DNA of 64,000 bases. It comes from Gammaproteobacteria bacterium (GTDB lineage Bacteria > Pseudomonadota > Gammaproteobacteria > Eutrophobiales > Eutrophobiaceae). Below the pieces are notes generated by a model that was given only the letters and a program-made list of their open reading frames with translations, was not told the origin of the DNA and ran no database searches. Below are positions 42,522-52,574 of this stretch, piece after piece. The stretch lies in NCBI GenBank assembly GCA_028281365.1, contig JANQJZ010000044.1, positions 29,818 to 93,817 on the forward strand. Direction: 5' to 3'. Each line of letters begins with the position of its first letter. Positions within the stretch are counted from its first letter, which is position 1. The translations under genes were made by a program, and so were the position numbers.

Positions 42522-43481
42522 CTAACTCGCTAATCTTATACTTATCATCCAGGTTACAAGACTGCCAGCAATTAAAAAAACGCCAATGGAAAGAAGCGAA
42601 TATATATGTAGTTTTTTCGTCAGGTCATCCTGTGCAAGTGCCGACAATATATAAGGTCTGCGCCGATCATTGGTCTTGCCCATTAGATGCACGGGCGGTA
42701 ACAGTTTTTGTTCATCATGTTTTTCCATAACTTTTTTATATGCTGCTTCCCTGACTTTTTGCCATTCCTGTAAATCCAGTTCACCGTCTTTATCGGTATC
42801 AAACTGTTTCATCAATTTTTCTGTATCTGTCTTCCATTCTCTTATTAATTCACGAACATCTTCGTTCACATCCAATTTTGCTCCGGAACCACCTACTGTT
42901 TTATAAAAACCAATCGCATAAAGACTCTCACCAGAGTGCAATAGTTTCTCCGTGTACCTGTATTTATTCACGCTCCCAATAAGACTTCTGGTAAATCGAC
43001 CCATAGCACTTGCTTTAACACTTCCAGGGTTAGCAGACGGAGATGAACTATGACCATACCAAACCCGACTATCACTAACAGTGACATTAGCCCCTTCCGG
43101 GTCAATGACACACTCACCCGTTTCGTCCTTTATTAAAAATAATTCATCACTGATTCCTTTCCTGATGGTTTTCCATTCCGTGCGTTTTCCACTTTGCCTT
43201 CGTTCTTCAACCCGGTACTCATACCATGTGCATGATTTACCGGTTAAAGGTGAAGCAATAGGTTGACCGTCCATCAAATAGCCATGCCCAACTAATTCAA
43301 TATAACCCTGGGCAGCGGAACGTATCTTCGATGTCGGCGTATCTTCTATGATTCTTTTTTTATGTGTGACGTGAAAAGCAAAGAAAAAGCCTGTTATTGC
43401 AGCAACAACTAATCCTGTAGACCAAAGCCAAAAATCGTCAGACGGACTTATTATGACCCATTCTTTCAGAGTATTAAGCAT
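42522..43481 (-). CDS. Membrane protein with N- and C-terminal TM helices and an EF-hand Ca-binding loop (GIDE-like topology)
   Basis: DTDKDGELDLQEW EF-hand loop with TM helices at both ends. Immediately downstream of lemA. Confidence 0.45.
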   Translation of the reverse strand: MLNTLKEWVIISPSDDFWLWSTGLVVAAITGFFFAFHVTHKKRIIEDTPTSKIRSAAQGYIELVGHGYLMDGQPIASPLTGKSCTWYEYRVEERRQSGKRTEWKTIRKGISDELFLIKDETGECVIDPEGANVTVSDSRVWYGHSSSPSANPGSVKASAMGRFTRSLIGSVNKYRYTEKLLHSGESLYAIGFYKTVGGSGAKLDVNEDVRELIREWKTDTEKLMKQFDTDKDGELDLQEWQKVREAAYKKVMEKHDEQKLLPPVHLMGKTNDRRRPYILSALAQDDLTKKLHIYSLLSIGVFLIAGSLVTWMISIRLAS

Positions 43482-43505
43482 CTCGGACTAAACTAAAAAG
43501 AAGAT

Positions 43506-44078
43506 TTAATTAAATAAAGCTTTTATATCTACGTCTTTCTTTTCTTCGTCGCTAAATTCAAGTAAGTCTCTAGCAGTAAACGCCATCATCCTGGCAATGA
43601 TTACATCCGGAAATTGTTCTATCCGAACATTATTTGCGTTGACAGATTCATTATAAAATTCACGTCGATCTGCTATCGCTTCTTCCAGCCCTGAAATACG
43701 TTGCTGCAGATGTTGAAAATTTTCATTGGCTTTTAAATCCGGGTAGGCCTCGGCAACAGCAAACAGATTACCCAATCCCATTCTAAGTTGAGTCTCTGCT
43801 GGACCCAGTGAAGAAACATCGCCTTTTTCTCTTGCTGCAAACACAGCCGCGCGCGCCTGCATCACTTTTTCCAATGTTTCCTGTTCAAATCCCATATATT
43901 GTTTACAGGTTTCAACCAGCTTTGGTAACTCATCGTGACGTTGTTTTAACAATACATCAATATTTGACCACGCCTTGGAAACATTGTGTTTTAAGGAAAC
44001 CAGGTTGTTATAGATAGTAACAACGTACATGACTATTGCTGCAACTATTCCCAGAAAAATGATCGTGGATACATCCAT
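43506..44078 (-). CDS. lemA: LemA-family protein
   Basis: N-terminal TM helix and LemA signature NNLVSLKHNVSKAWSNIDVLLKQRHDELP. Confidence 0.8.
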   Translation of the reverse strand: MDVSTIIFLGIVAAIVMYVVTIYNNLVSLKHNVSKAWSNIDVLLKQRHDELPKLVETCKQYMGFEQETLEKVMQARAAVFAAREKGDVSSLGPAETQLRMGLGNLFAVAEAYPDLKANENFQHLQQRISGLEEAIADRREFYNESVNANNVRIEQFPDVIIARMMAFTARDLLEFSDEEKKDVDIKALFN

Positions 44079-44137: not shown

Positions 44138-44156
44138 AGTAATAATTATCATTAAG
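44138..44156. promoter_or_regulatory. Putative Fur box upstream of bfr (AGTAATAATTATCATTAAG, ~13/19 to consensus)
   Basis: Match to GATAATGATAATCATTATC, judged by eye. Confidence 0.35.
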
Positions 44157-44244
44157 AAACAAATACTTATAAATTGACAAGCGTTATTTAGTACCTATTA
44201 TTAATTCATTCATTTTAGATAAATCATTACAGGACAAACACATT

Positions 44245-44709
44245 ATGCAGGGTAATAAACAGGTTATCGTTCATTTAAATAAAGTATTAAAAAATGAGTT
44301 AACGGCAATTAACCAATATTTTTTACATGCGCGCATGTATAAAAATTTTGGCTTAAAAGAACTTAATGAGCATGAATACCAAGAATCTGTTGACGAGATG
44401 AAACATGCTGATCAATTAATTGAGCGCATTTTGTTTCTGGAAGGTTTACCAAATTTACAGGACCTGGGTAAATTAAAGATTGGCGAGAACCCCAAGGAAA
44501 TGTTAGAGGCTGATCTAGAACTTGAAATGGAGGCCTTACCTGACTTGAAAGAAGCCATTCAATTTTGTGAAACCGAGCAAGACTATGTATCACGTGAGAT
44601 TTTTGAAGAGATCCTTGAGAGTGAAGAAGAACATGTCGATTGGTTGGAAACCCAATTAGACCTAATCAATAAGGTTGGTCTGGAAAATTATTTACAATCC
44701 AAGATGTAA
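44245..44709 (+). CDS. bfr: Bacterioferritin
   Basis: High similarity to Bfr, including the heme-ligand Met in [10 protein letters not shown]. 154 aa. Confidence 0.9.
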
Positions 44710-44715
44710 ATTATT

Positions 44716-44752
44716 GAAAAACCTGCTTTTATTTAAAAAAACAGGTTTTTTA
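44716..44752 (+). terminator. AT-rich hairpin plus T-run after bfr (aaaaaCCTGcttttatttaaaaaaaCAGGtttttt)
   Basis: Seen directly in the sequence. Probably only a partial terminator. Confidence 0.45.
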
Positions 44753-44765
44753 TTCAATTCTATTT

Positions 44766-44784
44766 GATAATAATTCTCATTAAG
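44766..44784. promoter_or_regulatory. Putative Fur box upstream of bfd (GATAATAATTCTCATTAAG, ~14/19)
   Basis: Match to the Fur consensus, judged by eye. bfd is a classical Fur target. Confidence 0.45.
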
Positions 44785-44831
44785 ACTACAATTCTTAATT
44801 AATTATATACGGATATGTCGATAAATATATT

Positions 44832-45029
44832 ATGTACGTTTGTGTTTGTAACGCCATTACCGAGTCAGACATTAAACAGGCCGTAAATGATGGGGCCAAT
44901 TGTCTGAAGCATCTTGAAACCAAACTGGGAGTAAGTAACCAGTGTGGCGCATGCAGTTGTGATGCAAAGCAATGCCTGACTACAGCATTAGAAGATCAAG
45001 TCACTGATTTCGACGTAATCACTTACTAA
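44832..45029 (+). CDS. bfd: Bacterioferritin-associated ferredoxin
   Basis: MYVCVCNAITE...CGACSC [2Fe-2S] motif, 65 aa. Confidence 0.85.
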   Translation: MYVCVCNAITESDIKQAVNDGANCLKHLETKLGVSNQCGACSCDAKQCLTTALEDQVTDFDVITY

Positions 45030-45088
45030 TTTATCCCTGAATATCTCTCACAGCTATGTGATTTAGTGGATAGATATTTTTAATAAAT

Positions 45089-45107
45089 AATAATGATTCT
45101 TATTTTG
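45089..45107. promoter_or_regulatory. Putative Fur box upstream of porin gene (AATAATGATTCTTATTTTG)
   Basis: ~13/19 match by eye. Confidence 0.35.
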
Positions 45108-45129
45108 ATTTAGATTTAAACATCTATTA

Positions 45130-46401
45130 TTGGGAGGAACTATGAACGTTAATACAAATATCAAAAAAACAATATATTTAATGGTTGCAGCATTGATGGT
45201 GGCACTATCGCCCACTGCCTATTCGGAAACGCCTGATGCTGAAGAGATGTGGAAGATCATCCAGCAGCAACAAAAGGTGATAGAGCAGTTACAAAAGAAG
45301 CTCGAACAGACAGAAGAGAAAGTTCAGGTGACGGAGCAGAAAGTCGAAGAGACGGCCCAGGAAGTTGAAGCGGCGGCTGAGGCAATCGAGACTGCATCAT
45401 CTTCGACAACCGGCAGTGGCTGGTGGGAAAGGACCAGCCTCGGTGGTTATGGTGAACTTCACTTCAATAGCCGAGATGGCGACGACCAGGTCGATTTTCA
45501 CCGTTACGTACTCTACGTTGGACATGAATTTACCGATAGCGTCCGCTTCTTCTCAGAGTGGGAGTTGGAACATTCTCTGGCAGGCGAAGGTAAGCCCGGT
45601 GAAGTGGAGCTCGAACAAGCCTGGATTGAATTGGATATCAATGATAATCATCGCTTCCGTGCCGGTCTGGATATCCTGCCTATCGGTATTATCAATCCTA
45701 CGCATGAACCAAATACCTTTTATGGCGTAGAGAGAAACCGTGTTGAATCGGAAATCATTCCGGCAACATGGTGGGAAGCAGGCGCAGGATTTAATGGTGA
45801 ATTTGCACCGGGTTGGAATTATCACGTCGTTCTTCACTCAGGACTGGATGTCCCGGTTACTGGTTCCAGTGCCGGTAGAATTCGAAGCGGTCGACAAAAG
45901 GTTGCAGAAGCCACAGCTGATCATCTGGCCACAACCGGTAGCTTGAGATTCACCGGTATTCCCGGACTGGAGCTTGGTACTTCATTTCAATACCAGGAAG
46001 ACATAACCGCGGGTGATGATGTTGGTGCAAACGAAGCAACCTTGTTTACCTTTCACGGTGATTACAAACATAGTTCAGGATTTGGACTACGTGCCTTATA
46101 CGCCCGTTGGGACCTGGACATGGTCATAGAGGCGGGTACAGAAGATGACGAACAAGATGGTTTCTACATCGAGCCGTCTTATCGCTTTAGCGAGCTGGTG
46201 GCAATGGGTGATATAGGTATCTTTGGCCGCTGGCAACAACTTGACCTGGCCAATGACAGAGAAGAAGAAAGTGTAGTAGCTGGTATCCAATGGTGGCCGG
46301 TTGATCAGGTTGTCTTCAAGTTTGACTATGAAAACAGGGAAGATGAAGATGCCAACACTGATCAGGATATCTACAGCCTGGGGTTAGGTTTCTCATTCTA
46401 A
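45130..46401 (+). CDS. Outer-membrane porin-like beta-barrel with N-terminal coiled coil; probable start MNVNTNIKK (~45142)
   Basis: Signal peptide, Q/E-rich coiled coil, alternating amphipathic beta strands and C-terminal ...LGLGFSF (terminal Phe). Confidence 0.6.
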   Translation: MGGTMNVNTNIKKTIYLMVAALMVALSPTAYSETPDAEEMWKIIQQQQKVIEQLQKKLEQTEEKVQVTEQKVEETAQEVEAAAEAIETASSSTTGSGWWERTSLGGYGELHFNSRDGDDQVDFHRYVLYVGHEFTDSVRFFSEWELEHSLAGEGKPGEVELEQAWIELDINDNHRFRAGLDILPIGIINPTHEPNTFYGVERNRVESEIIPATWWEAGAGFNGEFAPGWNYHVVLHSGLDVPVTGSSAGRIRSGRQKVAEATADHLATTGSLRFTGIPGLELGTSFQYQEDITAGDDVGANEATLFTFHGDYKHSSGFGLRALYARWDLDMVIEAGTEDDEQDGFYIEPSYRFSELVAMGDIGIFGRWQQLDLANDREEESVVAGIQWWPVDQVVFKFDYENREDEDANTDQDIYSLGLGFSF

Positions 46402-46423
46402 TTTCAGAACTGTTATTTAAAGA

Positions 46424-46442
46424 ATTATCGTTTAACGATAAT
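46424..46442. promoter_or_regulatory. Inverted repeat ATTATCG-tttaa-CGATAAT (GATAAT half-sites, Fur-like) upstream of the FMN_bind gene
   Basis: Perfect 7-bp arms seen directly in the sequence. Confidence 0.4.
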
Positions 46443-46462
46443 ATCCTCTGGTGATGATATTA

Positions 46463-46489
46463 AGGGCGCTTTTTAAGCGCCCTCTTTTT
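46463..46489 (+). terminator. Rho-independent terminator after porin gene (AGGGCGCTTtttAAGCGCCCTcttttt)
   Basis: 9-bp stem plus T-run. Confidence 0.75.
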
Positions 46490-46504
46490 ATGTTTAATTA
46501 AATA

Positions 46505-47029
46505 ATGAAGAAAAGATTAATCTATTTTTTTACTGCTGGTTTTATTTTTTTGTGCCTGGATTCACATGCAAAAGGAACCTATTTAGAACCAGAGCAGTTT
46601 TTAGTTAATACATTTGGAAACAATGTTCCTAAACCAAAAAAATTATGGATTAAAAAAGACCTGAAGCCGGAAATAAAAAAGATCATGGAACATGATCTGG
46701 GCGTTATACGACTACGTTACTGGGATAATGGCGTAAAGACTGCCTGGATATTAGAAGAGATTGGTAGGGATAAACCGATAACCGTTGGTTTAGTCATAAA
46801 AGACAAAAAAATTGAAAAGGTCAATGTATTAATCTTTCGTGAATCCAGGGGCTGGGAAGTAAAATATCCCTTCTTTACAGATCAATACAAGCAAGTCAGT
46901 CTATTGCCTGGATATAAACTTGATAAAAAGATCGATGGGATATCAGGGGCAACGCTTTCTGTTAATGCGTTAAATAAATTGGCCCGACTTGCGTTATATC
47001 TCGACTCATATGTAAAAAAGAATAAATAG
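46505..47029 (+). CDS. Periplasmic FMN-binding domain protein (FMN_bind; candidate covalent flavinylation site GISGATLS)
   Basis: Signal peptide and an NqrC/RnfG-type S-G-A-T motif. Confidence 0.6.
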   Translation: MKKRLIYFFTAGFIFLCLDSHAKGTYLEPEQFLVNTFGNNVPKPKKLWIKKDLKPEIKKIMEHDLGVIRLRYWDNGVKTAWILEEIGRDKPITVGLVIKDKKIEKVNVLIFRESRGWEVKYPFFTDQYKQVSLLPGYKLDKKIDGISGATLSVNALNKLARLALYLDSYVKKNK

Positions 47030-47030
47030 T

Positions 47031-47750
47031 ATGTTTGCATTTTTTCAAAAGTGGCACAGGAAGATAGGCATTATTGTTGCACTTTTCGTCATTTTCCTGG
47101 TGATTAGTGGCATAGCACTGAATCATAGTCATACACTAAAACTAAACATTCATTATATAAAGAATGATTGGTTGCTTGATTTATATCAAATTAACCCGAC
47201 AAAAAAACCGATAGGGTTTAATGAAGCGAATAATTGGGTGACTCAAATAGAAAATAGAATTTATTTTAATGATATAGAAGTAGCAAATGATATCGATCAA
47301 CTATTTGGCCTGATTTTAATTAACGACAATTTTGTTATTGCTATGGATGGCCAGTTAACACTGGTATCTAAACAAGGGGAAATCATAGAGCATATGACTG
47401 GTGCCGACGGTGTTCCTGCAGGGATGCGTGAGATTGGTATTTCAGATGAAAAAAATATAATTATTAAAGCCGCACATGGATTTTATCAGGTAAATCTCGA
47501 TGAACTTGAGTGGGAGGAATTTGATCATCTTGATGCTGTATGGTCAAAGGCCAAACCATTACCGAATGAGCTTGAACAATCACTACTTAAAAAATATCGA
47601 GGCACAGGACTCAGCATGGAAAGAGTCTTACTGGATTTACACAGTGGCAGAATTTTAGGTCCATGGGGGGTGTATCTGGTTGATATTGCCGCGATATTGT
47701 TTTTATTGCTGGCTTTAAGCGGCTCCTGGATGTGGTGGACAAAACGCTAA
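47031..47750 (+). CDS. PepSY-associated TM-helix protein (two PepSY_TM helices flanking a periplasmic domain)
   Basis: N-terminal WHRKIGIIVALFVIFLVISGIAL and C-terminal LHSGRILGPWGVYLVDIAAILFLLLALSGSWMWW helices. 1 nt after the FMN_bind gene. Confidence 0.6.
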   Translation: MFAFFQKWHRKIGIIVALFVIFLVISGIALNHSHTLKLNIHYIKNDWLLDLYQINPTKKPIGFNEANNWVTQIENRIYFNDIEVANDIDQLFGLILINDNFVIAMDGQLTLVSKQGEIIEHMTGADGVPAGMREIGISDEKNIIIKAAHGFYQVNLDELEWEEFDHLDAVWSKAKPLPNELEQSLLKKYRGTGLSMERVLLDLHSGRILGPWGVYLVDIAAILFLLLALSGSWMWWTKR

Positions 47751-47777
47751 AAAAATTTTTACATATTATGTAATTCG

Positions 47778-47796
47778 GAATCATTATCATTTATAC
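47778..47796. promoter_or_regulatory. Putative Fur box upstream of fbpA (GAATCATTATCATTTATAC)
   Basis: Contains an ATCATTATCATT core similar to the Fur consensus. Confidence 0.45.
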
Positions 47797-47824
47797 TTTC
47801 AAAATACGGAAATAAGCTATAAAA

Positions 47825-48829
47825 ATGAAGAACTTATTAATTATTGTATTACTGCTTTTTCAACAACAACTATTTGCTGCGGAAGTGAATGTCTATTCCG
47901 CGCGTAAAGAGGCCTTGATTAAACCGTTATTCGATCAGTTTACTGAACAAACAGGCATCGATGTAAATCTTGTAACCGGTAAGGCAGACACATTAATAAA
48001 ACGTCTGGAAGTTGAAGACAAAAATAGTCCCGCGGATATTTTAATAACTGTTGATGTTGCCCGCTTAATCAGAGGAAAAGAAAAAGGACTATTTCAATCC
48101 GTGAATTCAACTATTTTAGAAGAAACTATTCCTGTTCATTACCGCGATAGTAATAAAGAATGGTTTGGTTTGTCATTGCGATCACGTGTCATGGTTTATG
48201 CGCCTGATCGTGTTACTGATGATGAGCTTGACAGCTATATCGATCTTGCTGATGAAACCTGGAAGAATCGATTATGTGTCCGTTCATCTTCTAACGTCTA
48301 TAATCAGTCATTAGTTGCTGCCATGATTTCAAATTATGGTATTGAAAAAACGAAACACTGGGCGGATAGATTAGTTGGTAATTTTGCAAGACCTCCTAAA
48401 GGTGGTGATCGCGATCAAATTAAGGCTGTTGCAGCCGGGATATGCGATGTTGCTTTAGTTAATAACTATTACCTGGCGGGCATGTTGGAATCATCACGAG
48501 ATGATGAAGTCACTGCAGCTAAAAAAGTAAAATTATTCTGGCCAAATCAAGATGGTCGTGGTGCACATATGAATATTAGTGGTGCTGCACTTTTAAAATC
48601 GGCGAAACATAAAAATGAAGCGGTGAAATTACTTGAATTTCTTGTTAGTGATGCTGCACAACAATGGTATGCAGACACCAATCACGAATATTCCATTAAC
48701 CAGAAAATAAAAAGTAATTCAATATTAAAAAATTGGGGTGACTTTAAAGCTGATACATTAAATTTAAGCCTGTTAGGCAAACATAATACGGATGCTGTCA
48801 TATTAATGGACCAGGTTGGTTGGAAATGA
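47825..48829 (+). CDS. fbpA: Fe(3+) ABC transporter periplasmic binding protein (FbpA/AfuA family)
   Basis: Signal peptide and family similarity, 334 aa. Confidence 0.8.
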   Translation: MKNLLIIVLLLFQQQLFAAEVNVYSARKEALIKPLFDQFTEQTGIDVNLVTGKADTLIKRLEVEDKNSPADILITVDVARLIRGKEKGLFQSVNSTILEETIPVHYRDSNKEWFGLSLRSRVMVYAPDRVTDDELDSYIDLADETWKNRLCVRSSSNVYNQSLVAAMISNYGIEKTKHWADRLVGNFARPPKGGDRDQIKAVAAGICDVALVNNYYLAGMLESSRDDEVTAAKKVKLFWPNQDGRGAHMNISGAALLKSAKHKNEAVKLLEFLVSDAAQQWYADTNHEYSINQKIKSNSILKNWGDFKADTLNLSLLGKHNTDAVILMDQVGWK

Positions 48830-50528
48830 TGACACCATGCTTGTTACACGATCAACACAAGCAATTCCACTCAACCTGAATCACAAAGCTTTTTCTTTTC
48901 TGTCCTCAAAATGGAATATTACTCTGATATTCATTTCATTCTTGTTTTGTATTCCTTTATTAATCATTTTTGGATCACTATTTTTTCCGGCAAAGGAAAT
49001 CTGGTTACATTTAATTGATACCGTACTTATTGATTATATAAGTAACTCTTTCGCATTATCAATTGGTGTTGGTTGTTTAAGTCTTGTGTTAGGAATCATC
49101 CCTGCCTGGTTAGTCACCATGTATCGATTTCCAATGAGTCGATTCCTTGAATGGGCATTGCTATTACCGATGGCGATGCCTGCATATATCATTGCCTATA
49201 GCTATACTGGTTTACTTGAATTTGCCGGACCACTGCAAACATTCTTAAGAGAAATAACCGGTTGGCAATATCATGACTACTGGTTCCCGGAGATCCGCTC
49301 ATTGGGCGGAGCAATAATTATGCTATCCCTTGTTCTATATCCATATGTTTATTTGTTGGCTCGCGCCGCATTTATTGAACAATCTATTTGTGTGTTGGAA
49401 GTTTCAAGGACTCTGGGATGTAATACGATTACAGCATTCAGGCGTGTTGCATTACCTCTGGCACGACCCGCCATTATCGTTGGTTTATCGTTAGTCATTA
49501 TGGAAACACTGGCGGACTATGGCACTGTGCAATATTTCGGTGTCTCTACATTCACGACCGGTATCTTTAGAACCTGGTTTGGACTTGGTAACAGCCTGGC
49601 CGCTGCACAATTATCTGCCTTGTTATTGGTGTTTGTTGCGATATTTTTATATATGGAAAAACGATCCCGAAAACAGGCACGTTTTCATCACACTAGCAGT
49701 CGTTACAGTTCATTACTGCAACATAGGTTGAGTAGAAAAAAAGGACTATTAGCCTTCACATTCTGTTCATCGCCGTTAATTTTTGGATTTCTGGTGCCAG
49801 TCTACTTCTTAACAAACTGGGCCTTTGAAACCTATTCGCATGTTATAGATAAAAATTTCTATCAATTATTAATAAACAGCCTGTTACTCGCTTCGATTGC
49901 CTCGTTACTTGCTCTATTGATTGCATTATTTATGGCGTATTCGAACAGAAATTCAAATTCACCACTAAACCATTTTATGGTTCGATTAGTTAGCCTAGGT
50001 TACGCTATCCCCGGAACTGTTATTGCAGTAGGTGTGTTAATCCCGTTTGCCTGGTTTGATAATACATTAGATACATTTTTAACCAGGCAATTTAATATAA
50101 GTAGCGGTCTGTTAATCAGTGGTACTGTATTTACATTAGTATTTGCCTATCTGGTTCGTTTTCTGGCCGTTTCTATAAATACGGTAGAAGCAGGTTTAAT
50201 AAAGATAAAACCTGTCATGGATGAAGTTGCTAAAACTACAGGAATGACATCAGGTAAAATTATCGGCCGCATTCATATCCCTATGATGCGGGGAAGCCTG
50301 TTAACAGCACTTTTATTAGTATTCGTTGACGTAATGAAAGAACTTCCTGCAACACTTATTTTAAGACCCTTTAATTTTAATACGCTTGCAGTCCGTGCCT
50401 ATGAGCTGGCCAATGAAGAACGTCTGGCTGATGCTGCTGTTCCGGCATTGGCTATTGTTATTGCTGGTATTATACCGGTTATTATGATCAGTAATTCTAT
50501 CTCCAAATCACGTCCCGGCCATGAGTAA
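48816..50528 (+). CDS. fbpB: Fe(3+) ABC transporter permease (two-domain FbpB/AfuB)
   Basis: 12-TM duplicated BPD permease, 570 aa. Confidence 0.8.
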   Translation: MVGNDDTMLVTRSTQAIPLNLNHKAFSFLSSKWNITLIFISFLFCIPLLIIFGSLFFPAKEIWLHLIDTVLIDYISNSFALSIGVGCLSLVLGIIPAWLVTMYRFPMSRFLEWALLLPMAMPAYIIAYSYTGLLEFAGPLQTFLREITGWQYHDYWFPEIRSLGGAIIMLSLVLYPYVYLLARAAFIEQSICVLEVSRTLGCNTITAFRRVALPLARPAIIVGLSLVIMETLADYGTVQYFGVSTFTTGIFRTWFGLGNSLAAAQLSALLLVFVAIFLYMEKRSRKQARFHHTSSRYSSLLQHRLSRKKGLLAFTFCSSPLIFGFLVPVYFLTNWAFETYSHVIDKNFYQLLINSLLLASIASLLALLIALFMAYSNRNSNSPLNHFMVRLVSLGYAIPGTVIAVGVLIPFAWFDNTLDTFLTRQFNISSGLLISGTVFTLVFAYLVRFLAVSINTVEAGLIKIKPVMDEVAKTTGMTSGKIIGRIHIPMMRGSLLTALLLVFVDVMKELPATLILRPFNFNTLAVRAYELANEERLADAAVPALAIVIAGIIPVIMISNSISKSRPGHE

Positions 50529-51564
50529 TGCGATTGAGTTAAAAAATATTAGCGTCTCTATAGAAGACCGGGTAATACTCGATAATATTTCATTTGGACT
50601 GAATGAAGGAGGAATTGCTTGTCTACTCGGACCCAGTGGTTGTGGTAAGACAACTTTATTACGTTGCATAGCTGGATTTCAGTATCAACAACAGGGTGAA
50701 GTATGGATAAAGGGTGTCAGGGCGAGTAACCCGGTTCATTATCTCCCTGTTGAACAAAGACAGATAGGTATGGTGTTTCAGGATTACGCATTGTTTCCAC
50801 ATTTAAATGTGGCTGACAATATTATTTTTGGCCTGAAAAAACTTGATAAACAAAGAACCAAACAGCGTTTGGATGAATTGATCGAATTATTCTCTCTTGC
50901 AGAACATGTAAACAAATATCCACATCGTTTATCCGGCGGACAACAACAACGGGTTGCACTAGCCAGGGCCATGGCTTCGCGACCGGGAGTTTTATTAATG
51001 GATGAACCATTTGCCAGCCTTGACATAGAACTACGGGAGCAGATTGCCAGGGAAGTACATCAAATATTAAAACAGGATGGCATTACAACAATAATGGTTA
51101 GTCATAATCAACTTGAAGCATTTGCAATAGCGGATGTTATTGGTGTAATGAACGAAGGAAAGCTATTACAGTGGGACAATGCATTCAATTTATACCATGA
51201 ACCGGAATCATCCGAAGTCGCTGACTTTATTGGAGAAGGTGTGTTCATCCCGGGTAAAGTTATTAATGAAAAAAAGGTCCAAACCGAGATTGGAAATATT
51301 ACCGGGCAATCTCCTCACGGTTTCCAGCCTGGAAGTAAAGTAAATGTGTTAATTCGACCCGATGACATTTTACATGATGACGATAGTTCTATGACTGCAT
51401 GTGTCAGAGATAAGGCTTTTAGAGGTGCAGAATTTTTATATACGCTGGAACTTGAAAGTGGCTTACGCTTATTGAGTCTGGTACCCAGTCATCATAATCA
51501 CCCGGTAAATGAACCCATTGGCATAAAGCTGGAAATTGATCACCTGGTTATTTTTCCTGCATAG
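50521..51564 (+). CDS. fbpC: Fe(3+) ABC transporter ATP-binding protein
   Basis: GPSGCGKTT, LSGGQQQRVALARA, 347 aa. Confidence 0.85.
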   Translation: MSNAIELKNISVSIEDRVILDNISFGLNEGGIACLLGPSGCGKTTLLRCIAGFQYQQQGEVWIKGVRASNPVHYLPVEQRQIGMVFQDYALFPHLNVADNIIFGLKKLDKQRTKQRLDELIELFSLAEHVNKYPHRLSGGQQQRVALARAMASRPGVLLMDEPFASLDIELREQIAREVHQILKQDGITTIMVSHNQLEAFAIADVIGVMNEGKLLQWDNAFNLYHEPESSEVADFIGEGVFIPGKVINEKKVQTEIGNITGQSPHGFQPGSKVNVLIRPDDILHDDDSSMTACVRDKAFRGAEFLYTLELESGLRLLSLVPSHHNHPVNEPIGIKLEIDHLVIFPA

Positions 51565-51669: not shown

Positions 51670-52071
51670 GTGGAAATAAAAATGCATAATGTCCCCGGCG
51701 AATTAAAATATACAGCAACACACACCTGGGTCGAAGAACTTGGAGAAAATAAATACCGTGTTGGAATCACGGATTTTGCCCAGGATGAGCTTGGTGATAT
51801 CGTATTCGTAGAACCACCCGAACTTAACCGGGAGTACTCACAATCAGATGAATGTGCGGTTGTTGAATCTGTTAAATCGACTTCAGATATATATTGCCCA
51901 CTTAGTGGTACTATCCTGGAAATTAACGAATTACTTGAAGATTCACCGGAAACAATAAATAGTGAACCATATAATGAAGGGTGGGTTTTTATTATTCATG
52001 CAGTGGATAATTCAGAACTCGAAGAATTAATAAATGCTGAAACTTATTCAGAGTTAACGGAAGAGGGCTAA
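51670..52071 (+). CDS. gcvH: Glycine-cleavage H-protein-type lipoyl carrier (orphan gcvH); probable start MHNVPGELKY
   Basis: Near-collinear with E. coli GcvH, including lipoyl-Lys ESVKSTSD. No gcvT/gcvP nearby. Confidence 0.8.
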   Translation: MEIKMHNVPGELKYTATHTWVEELGENKYRVGITDFAQDELGDIVFVEPPELNREYSQSDECAVVESVKSTSDIYCPLSGTILEINELLEDSPETINSEPYNEGWVFIIHAVDNSELEELINAETYSELTEEG

Positions 52072-52076
52072 ACAAC

Positions 52077-52574
52077 ATGGCAACTATCACATTACAAGGC
52101 AATGAAATACATACTAACGGGGATTTACCAAAAAAAGGGGATACTGCGCCGGATTTTACACTGGTAGATTCAGAATTAGGTGATGTTACTCTAGAAACCT
52201 ATAAAGGGAAGAAAAAACTATTAAGTATCGTACCCAGCCTGGATACTCCTGTCTGTGCAACATCAACAAAAAAATTTAATGACGCCGCAAAAGACAAATC
52301 AGATGCCGTCTTTTTAATGATTGCAACTGACTTACCATTTGCGATGTCCCGTTTTTGTAGTGCAGAGGGTACTGATAATGTTATTACCTTATCATTAATG
52401 CGATCCCGGAAATTTGCAAAAGACTACGGGGTACTAATCGAAGATGGGCCTCTGGCTGGTATTACCGCACGGGCTGTCGTTGTTATCGATGAAAATGACA
52501 AGGTTATTCATTCCGAGCTGGTACCGGAAATAGCACAGGAACCGGATTACGATGCTGCACTTGCGGCATTATAA
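52077..52574 (+). CDS. tpx: Thiol peroxidase
   Basis: Tpx family with ...SLDTPVCATS peroxidatic Cys, 165 aa. Confidence 0.85.
   Translation: MATITLQGNEIHTNGDLPKKGDTAPDFTLVDSELGDVTLETYKGKKKLLSIVPSLDTPVCATSTKKFNDAAKDKSDAVFLMIATDLPFAMSRFCSAEGTDNVITLSLMRSRKFAKDYGVLIEDGPLAGITARAVVVIDENDKVIHSELVPEIAQEPDYDAALAAL

Follow-up and report, generated by a model that had tools for sequence, protein, structure and literature searches.

A 64,000-nucleotide stretch of a gammaproteobacterial genome from the family Eutrophobiaceae (GCA_028281365.1, contig JANQJZ010000044.1, positions 29,818 to 93,817; hereafter the window) carries a genuine iron gene cluster at positions 44138-51564. Its functional unit, as judged from gene order across relatives, appears to be a triad encoding a porin, a secreted flavin mononucleotide (FMN)-binding protein (FMN_bind) and a PepSY_TM membrane protein. 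With moderate confidence, we read this triad as a module of the cell envelope that Fur represses and that acquires iron by reduction, independently of siderophores. The core of the cassette is an uncharacterised, widespread variant of a published class of systems, set in an ordinary-looking iron cluster. The initial annotation of the region had proposed that FMN_bind and PepSY_TM form a periplasmic flavin-dependent iron reductase feeding the importer FbpABC. The core of this idea holds. It needs correcting in three respects, namely the restriction to a pair, the feeding of FbpABC as a general design and the novelty, as the central idea is a rediscovery of a concept published in 2021. The inventory of that annotation stands in full: the listing of open reading frames together with Pfam and NCBIfam profile searches confirmed eight genes, namely bfr, bfd, the porin with its coiled-coil head, FMN_bind, PepSY_TM and fbpABC (Table 1).

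The triad is common and its order is nearly strict. Among 400 genomes drawn evenly from the class and covering 321 genera, this type of PepSY_TM protein was found in 77 genomes (63 genera), and the porin profile matched 86 genomes, mostly overlapping with the PepSY_TM set (both tallies include two genomes flagged as unpublished, G039 and G141, on which no individual claim depends). Synteny was analysed at 29 foreign loci and at 80 further species-level loci. At the foreign loci, FMN_bind always lay directly 5' of PepSY_TM (29/29), and the porin preceded FMN_bind in 27 of them. The species-level loci had FMN_bind in 77 cases and the porin in 75, with misses mainly at contig ends. The proposed pair is thus indeed a conserved unit, but the porin also belongs to it. 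The carriers among the 80 loci are mainly marine and sediment metagenome-assembled genomes labelled Thiotrichaceae, Ectothiorhodospiraceae, Chromatiales, Thiohalophilus or Acidiferrobacterales. The tight coupling of the two downstream genes noted initially is general as well: a single nucleotide separates the FMN_bind stop from the PepSY_TM ATG in the window, and across relatives the two genes lie a median of 4 nt apart, with overlaps at 33 of 75 loci.

The wider neighbourhood is much less constant. The importer genes fbpABC follow the triad in about 21 of the 80 species-level loci and bfr-bfd precede it in 18, both flanking it in a subclade only. The recurrence of the pair beside iron genes in other genomes is therefore real, and these 18 loci also indicate that bfr before bfd, initially described as atypical, is the norm in this lineage. 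The linkage to fbpABC is lineage-specific, which argues against a general design in which the reductase feeds this importer. Outside the subclade the neighbours include HemJ with a Redoxin protein, an ErpA-like protein with an ATP-grasp protein, RppH-PtsP, ClC and PrlC. As most of these are housekeeping genes, iron-specific neighbours as a general rule were ruled out.

The genomes that match the porin profile and lack PepSY_TM are explained by two contig ends, by one genus with the porin only and by one lineage with a porin-FMN_bind-ApbE arrangement. In the porin-only genus, two complete genomes (G206 and G363; loci L136 and L137) encode a strong porin orthologue with neither FMN_bind nor PepSY_TM as a partner, located between genes for Ppx/GppA and a histidine phosphatase and a gene for an ornithine/arginine decarboxylase. 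In the other lineage (L141:4953-7737 of G233, and L142 of G381), a distant branch of the porin family precedes FMN_bind, and ApbE comes immediately after. No PepSY_TM gene was found near these two variant loci, and no Fur-like site was detected upstream of them.

Regulation by iron is indicated by Fur boxes, which we scored by counting matches to the Escherichia coli 19-mer consensus against genome and intergenic backgrounds. A search of the cluster with this 19-mer allowing at most three mismatches returned no site. Sites with at least 14 of 19 matches occur in the intergenic DNA of this genome at 0.20 per kb, and the 577 bp of intergenic DNA in the cluster hold three of them, compared to 0.11 expected (Poisson p ~2e-4). 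Of 61 related loci with GC contents of 35-70%, 42 carry a canonical Fur box between -40 and -110 relative to the porin gene, for a chance expectation below 0.1 per region, and the consensus of these sites across relatives is nTAAATGATAATCATTATC. A separate set of loci yielded such a box in 13 of 18 cases. The retention of a Fur box in front of the operon points to iron regulation, as the initial proposal demanded. Upstream of bfd, the box is kept at -57 to -69 in 13 of 18 related loci. Considering their overlap with promoter-like sites (Table 1), their conservation and the three Fur-family genes encoded in this genome, the porin and bfd promoters are predicted members of a Fur regulon.

Of the five Fur operators initially claimed, those of bfd and the porin are hence strongly supported, and those of fbpA and bfr are plausible. 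For fbpA, a near-identical sequence recurs at -54 to -65 in close relatives only, and 5 of 19 loci fall below a chance expectation of 0.1. Support for the bfr element is weak, with a similar site at about -105 in close relatives only (3/16, at the same threshold). The fifth operator, in front of FMN_bind, is not supported: its best score is just 11/19, the scores of relatives resemble the background, and a conserved terminator fills the spacer. Likewise, no Fur-like site stands out in the porin-FMN_bind spacers of relatives (64 loci). The bfr promoter itself (region 44138-44201) is close to consensus, with TTGACA, a 16-nt spacer and TATTAT, and its Fur-like site is placed 5' of the -35 element and not over it. 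Such a position would suit activation or anti-silencing by iron-loaded Fur, not repression.

The strong predicted intrinsic terminator behind the porin gene may be the second regulatory element of the operon. It leaves no room for a promoter between itself and FMN_bind. A GC-rich hairpin with a T tail is present in the same spacer in 49 of 64 related loci, and since the stem sequences differ between lineages, it is the structure and not the sequence that is conserved. Transcription of FMN_bind and PepSY_TM seems to start at the porin promoter and to read through this terminator, as the two genes have no Fur box of their own. Most simply, these sequences would be read as a single operon under Fur control, in which an internal terminator attenuates transcription and so keeps the porin in excess; the hairpin is probably an attenuator that sets the porin-to-reductase ratio.

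The FMN_bind protein has the hallmarks of a flavinylated, exported protein. A hydrophobic N-terminal signal sequence is visible by eye in the translation, and the motif DGISGATLS near the C-terminus places the predicted flavinylation site at T150. Five residues of this region, D144, G148, A149, T150 and S152, are invariant in all 77 homologues, so the conservation of the threonine on which the initial proposal depended is complete. T150 is expected to be the acceptor for ApbE. The search for a flavin transferase, suggested along with that proposal, recovered one stand-alone ApbE in the genome (297 bits, contig C48). Besides the gene of the triad, the genome has one other FMN_bind gene, which is RnfG-like. 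In sequence, the protein thus agrees with NqrC/RnfG-type ApbE substrates, with a [S/T]GA[T/S] motif, a conserved threonine and an encoded ApbE. Furthermore, the cluster combines a PF03929/PF16357 protein with a signal-bearing FMN-binding protein, which is the operational definition used by Méheust et al. (2021).

Its membrane partner, the product of the only PepSY_TM gene in this genome, looks like one half of the siderophore reductase FoxB. FoxB of Pseudomonas aeruginosa (7ABW) is a di-haem PepSY_TM ferri-siderophore reductase, a four-helix bundle holding two b-haems on conserved histidines. The AlphaFold2 (AF2) model of the window protein (predicted local distance difference test, pLDDT, 92.9) has only two transmembrane helices (TM): TM1 with the N-terminus inside, then an all-β periplasmic domain (residues 61-164), two short helices and a C-terminal TM2. 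The β domain matches three-blade fragments of propellers (NHL, WD40 and designed ones); this three-blade partial β-propeller fold ruled out that the periplasmic domain consists of PepSY domains. The N-terminal KWH motif aligns to FoxB TM1, and DLHSGR with the following TM aligns to FoxB TM2 and TM4. Three histidines are invariant among the homologues, with H9 on the cytoplasmic side of the membrane and H32 and H204 on the periplasmic side, and all three align to His-bearing segments of FoxB. From this half-FoxB architecture we presume a homodimer, which would rebuild both bis-His sites and might join the two half-propellers.

For the porin, the AF2 model predicts a 16-strand barrel with a conserved N-terminal coiled-coil helix (about residues 33-88) at a pLDDT of 77.6, behind a signal peptide. 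Foldseek matched it to OmpC, OprP and OmpU at about 1e-13 (OprP 2O4V, E 2.5e-13; also 4RJX). By sequence, the porin profile gave just marginal matches to OmpX and to coiled coils in the PDB. Barrel and profile together assign the protein to the OprO/OprP family (PF07396). Its invariant residues form strands with alternating Glu and His (ELELEH, EVELEQ) and include five His. As alternating strand positions should face the lumen, these residues suggest a cation-selective counterpart of the arginine ladder of OprP, i.e. a porin selective for cations rather than anions.

The genes downstream of the triad encode an importer of the FbpABC/FutABC type, comprising a FutA-class binding protein, a double permease and an ATPase. 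In phmmer searches against the PDB, the binding protein matched 6G7N (2.4e-96), Synechocystis FutA1 (2PT1, 2.1e-88) and Mannheimia FbpA (1Q35, 4.4e-79). The ATPase reaches 246 bits against PRK11432 (ferric ATPase), which is under the cut-off of that model. The genome, 2.2 Mb in size and estimated to be 100% complete, encodes two TonB-dependent (Plug-domain) receptors, both away from the cluster. FeoB was not found in it, as its FeoB_N matches are at the level of generic GTPases and none to the Gate domain were obtained. Because only two TonB-dependent receptors and no FeoB were found, the FutA-type importer with the cassette directly upstream is probably the main iron route of this bacterium.

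Starting from the observed gene identities, synteny, conserved motifs and Fur boxes, and from the predicted folds, we infer a mechanism that includes haem and flavin loading, dimerisation, a direction of electron flow, a substrate and a selectivity of the porin. Under iron limitation the porin promoter would fire, and the partial terminator after the porin gene would keep porin levels high relative to the two downstream products. With a lumen predicted to be rich in invariant Glu and His in place of the arginines of OprP, the trimeric-type porin of 16 strands would let iron species into the periplasm. At the inner membrane, a PepSY_TM dimer would form a FoxB-like four-helix bundle with two b-haems, in which H9 and H9' may hold the haem at the cytoplasmic face and H204 and H204' that at the periplasmic face. 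This dimer would take up electrons on the membrane or cytoplasmic side and hand them to the FMN on T150 of FMN_bind, where ApbE would have attached it covalently, and the flavin would reduce Fe(III), free or ligand-bound. The iron would then pass to the adjacent FutA-type binding protein and FbpBC in this genome, and elsewhere to the importer that the respective genome possesses. Storage and mobilisation would be provided by the adjacent Bfr and Bfd.

Several points weigh against this reading. The triad subfamily is known from sequence alone, and the literature we searched contains no paper joining PepSY, FMN-binding, porin and iron. Outside the subclade, its link with iron would come from the Fur boxes alone, and in four genomes (G206, G363, G233 and G381) the porin occurs without a detectable PepSY_TM partner. 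The classical ligand of FutA/FbpA proteins is Fe(III), so that a reductase directly 5' of such a protein is no obvious fit. The PepSY_TM protein lacks a cytoplasmic domain, and no fused or double-length PepSY_TM relatives were found in a search that is itself weak evidence. A predicted complex of FMN_bind residues 24-174 with two PepSY_TM chains and two haems passed weakly and is counted as evidence neither way. It scored 0.33 against 0.00 for the best control, with a partner pLDDT of 82 and at least 75% of contacts agreeing between runs. The mark for this score is reached by 58 of 80 solved complexes and by 2 of 110 mismatched pairs, but among those that reach it, only 7 of the 80 solved complexes and both passing mismatches score 0.60 or less.

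The same hardware could serve another metal. A periplasmic cupric (or other) reductase supplying respiratory oxidases has a precedent in CrpH of Bordetella, a PepSY_TM protein with conserved haem histidines linked to copper and haem-copper oxidases (PMC13038864), which likewise counts against our preferred reading, and any divalent cation would be compatible with the invariant His and Glu of the porin. We regard a CrpH-like role as highly improbable, as the conserved upstream sites are canonical Fur boxes and not copper-regulator sites, the recurrent specific neighbours are bfr, bfd and the FutA-type iron importer, and the 16-kb contexts of the loci examined showed no copper genes. A reversed electron flow would be in line with FutA/FbpA proteins being Fe(III) binders: Fe(II) admitted by the porin would be oxidised at the flavoprotein, with electrons passing through the cytochrome to quinone and Fe(III) being taken by FutA/FbpA. 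Many of the carriers are sulfur-oxidiser-type Gammaproteobacteria of sediments and redox interfaces, where Fe(II) exists. However, the FMN bound in NqrC/RnfG-type domains is generally of low potential and suits the reduction of Fe(III) better than the uptake of electrons from Fe(II), the characterised PepSY_TM and VciB relatives all work as reductases, and the linkage to fbpABC is confined to about a quarter of the loci, all of which makes the reversed flow very improbable in our view.

A further alternative is that FMN_bind and PepSY_TM supply electrons to the periplasm in general, for repair or a non-metal substrate, and share the operon of the porin for regulatory convenience only. Flavinylated FMN_bind proteins do serve many extracytosolic redox systems (PMC8238504, PMC11334425), and outside the subclade most neighbours are not iron uptake genes. 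Such a loose association is hard to reconcile with the strict synteny of the triad over more than 60 genera, its tight coupling and its Fur box, and no candidate substrate enzyme is conserved beside it; we consider this alternative improbable. It is thus the Fur boxes, the iron neighbours or the flavin chemistry that disfavour the rivals. The module for reductive iron acquisition may also be organised more tightly than outlined above, as one connected, envelope-spanning device. The half-FoxB dimer, with its half-propellers closing into a six-bladed ring, would pass electrons to a flavoprotein docked on the coiled-coil stalk beneath the Glu/His-lined porin. Fe(III) would then be reduced at or in the mouth of this porin and drawn through the outer membrane with no need for TonB or siderophores. 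This is a speculative and rather unlikely version.

The closest published systems are flavinylation-associated PepSY-like clusters. Méheust et al. (2021, eLife; PMC8238504) assembled 3,220 of them bioinformatically and tied them to iron reduction, citing control by Fur in Shewanella and Caulobacter as well as connections with VIT1 and TonB; for the related Caulobacter loci, iron phenotypes are supported by published work. Huang et al. (2024, mSystems; PMC11334425) described the structural kinship of PepSY, MsrQ and DUF4405 cytochromes. Our cassette shares with these systems a PepSY_TM protein (PF03929/PF16357) encoded beside a secreted flavoprotein substrate of ApbE, a proposed extracytosolic iron reduction and, for some members, control by Fur. 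The published clusters mostly contain DUF2271 (2,833 of 3,220), together with DUF4198 and a local ApbE, and some include NAD-binding fusions, VIT1 or TonB-related genes. In contrast, the flavoprotein is here a PF04205 FMN_bind protein, ApbE has its gene elsewhere in the genome, a half-size partial-propeller form with two TM serves as the membrane protein, and a dedicated porin comes first. Porins as partners of flavinylated systems are not mentioned in either paper. A fixed first-gene porin, a two-TM half-propeller cytochrome, an internal terminator and the porin-FMN_bind-ApbE variant were not found in the 2021 and 2024 papers or in the wider literature searched, with the cluster table of the 2021 paper covered in part.

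Likenesses to other iron systems concern single components. Electron transfer by haem b to periplasmic Fe(III), presumed here, is shared with FoxB. However, FoxB is a single chain with four TM and two PepSY domains, encoded beside a TonB-dependent receptor and with no flavoprotein partner, whereas the window protein has two TM, an all-β three-blade domain, a porin and a flavoprotein as partners and no TonB-dependent receptor as a neighbour. VciB of Vibrio cholerae and CCNA_03155-03159/HiuB of Caulobacter are similar as Fur-regulated, PepSY-related inner-membrane proteins implicated in periplasmic Fe(III) reduction. They differ in architecture, their partners are TonB-dependent transporters, DUF2271/DUF4198 proteins or the small HiuC, and none is paired with a porin and FMN_bind. 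The porin resembles OprP/OprO in its Porin_O_P match above the cut-off and its predicted 16-strand barrel; the invariant Glu/His strands and an N-terminal coiled-coil helix set it apart from OprP with its arginine ladder. In its overall logic, the proposed route is reminiscent of cyanobacteria, in which porins, FutABC and a reductive step serve siderophore-independent iron uptake (reviewed in PMC7676907). Entry through a porin, a FutA-class binder and reduction at the inner membrane are common to both, and the binding protein in the window matches Trichodesmium and Synechocystis FutA with E ~1e-90. The reductase proposed in cyanobacteria, ARTO, is unrelated, and the cyanobacterial parts are not encoded as one cassette.

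The features of the cluster are listed in Table 1. The Bfd match to NF007803 is under the cut-off of that model. In several relatives (L054, L056, L058 and L060), two tandem bfr paralogues precede bfd, 5' of the porin; they are about 82% and 55% identical to the Bfr of the window, and recall the two-bacterioferritin arrangement of pseudomonads. Just 3' of fbpC, at 51670-52574, a stand-alone GcvH (GCV_H, 138 bits) is directly followed by a Redoxin/Tpx-type peroxidase. In several relatives a Redoxin gene is paired with HemJ (UPF0093) near the cassette. On the other side, divergent from bfr, a LemA gene and then a GIDE-domain membrane protein with an EF-hand occupy 42522-44078 on the minus strand.

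Table 1. Genes and predicted regulatory elements of the iron cluster, in window coordinates.
Feature	Position	Strand	Remarks
Fur-like site 5' of bfr	44138-44156		14/19; about 18 nt 5' of the -35
bfr, bacterioferritin	44245-44709	+	TIGR00754, 252.5 bits; Pfam Ferritin
Fur box 5' of bfd (predicted)	44766-44784		15/19; overlaps the -35 and spacer of promoter-like site 44764-44792
bfd, bacterioferritin-associated [2Fe-2S] ferredoxin	44832-45029	+	Pfam Fer2_BFD, 33 bits
Fur box 5' of the porin gene (predicted)	45086-45107 (best match 45089)		13-14/19; overlaps the -10 of promoter-like site 45067-45094
Porin gene	45142-46401	+	Porin_O_P, 27.5 bits (cut-off 20.9)
Putative intrinsic terminator/attenuator hairpin	46463-46492	+	Stem 46463-46483, 9 bp with 6 GC pairs, then T tail
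Secreted FMN_bind protein, 174 aa	46505-47029	+	PF04205, 35.6 bits
PepSY_TM protein, 239 aa	47031-47750	+	PF03929, 50.3 bits, and PF16357, 29.8 bits, both over cut-off
Fur-like half-site 5' of fbpA	47770-47794		13/19; overlaps promoter-like site 47758-47787
fbpA, FutA/IdiA/FbpA-class periplasmic iron-binding protein	47825-48829	+	phmmer against the PDB
Fused double permease, FbpB/FutB type	48816-50528	+	Two BPD_transp_1 stretches
ABC ATPase, FbpC/FutC type	50521-51564	+	ABC_tran and TOBE_2

Among the iron transporters of marine bacteria, Fe(III) ABC importers of the FutA/FbpA type are the most common. In cells with few or no siderophore receptors, the passage of iron across the outer membrane and its release from ligands are poorly understood, and a Fur-controlled cassette that couples a cation-type porin to a flavin/haem reductase would provide a specific route open to experiment. 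Its two-helix membrane protein can also serve as a minimal model of PepSY_TM cytochromes. If the parts of the cassette did form one connected device, streamlined marine and sediment Gammaproteobacteria would possess a distinct pathway for iron uptake with high affinity. The PepSY_TM component occurs in about a fifth of the class genomes sampled. It is probable that many uncultured Gammaproteobacteria employ the triad for siderophore-free reduction and uptake of iron.

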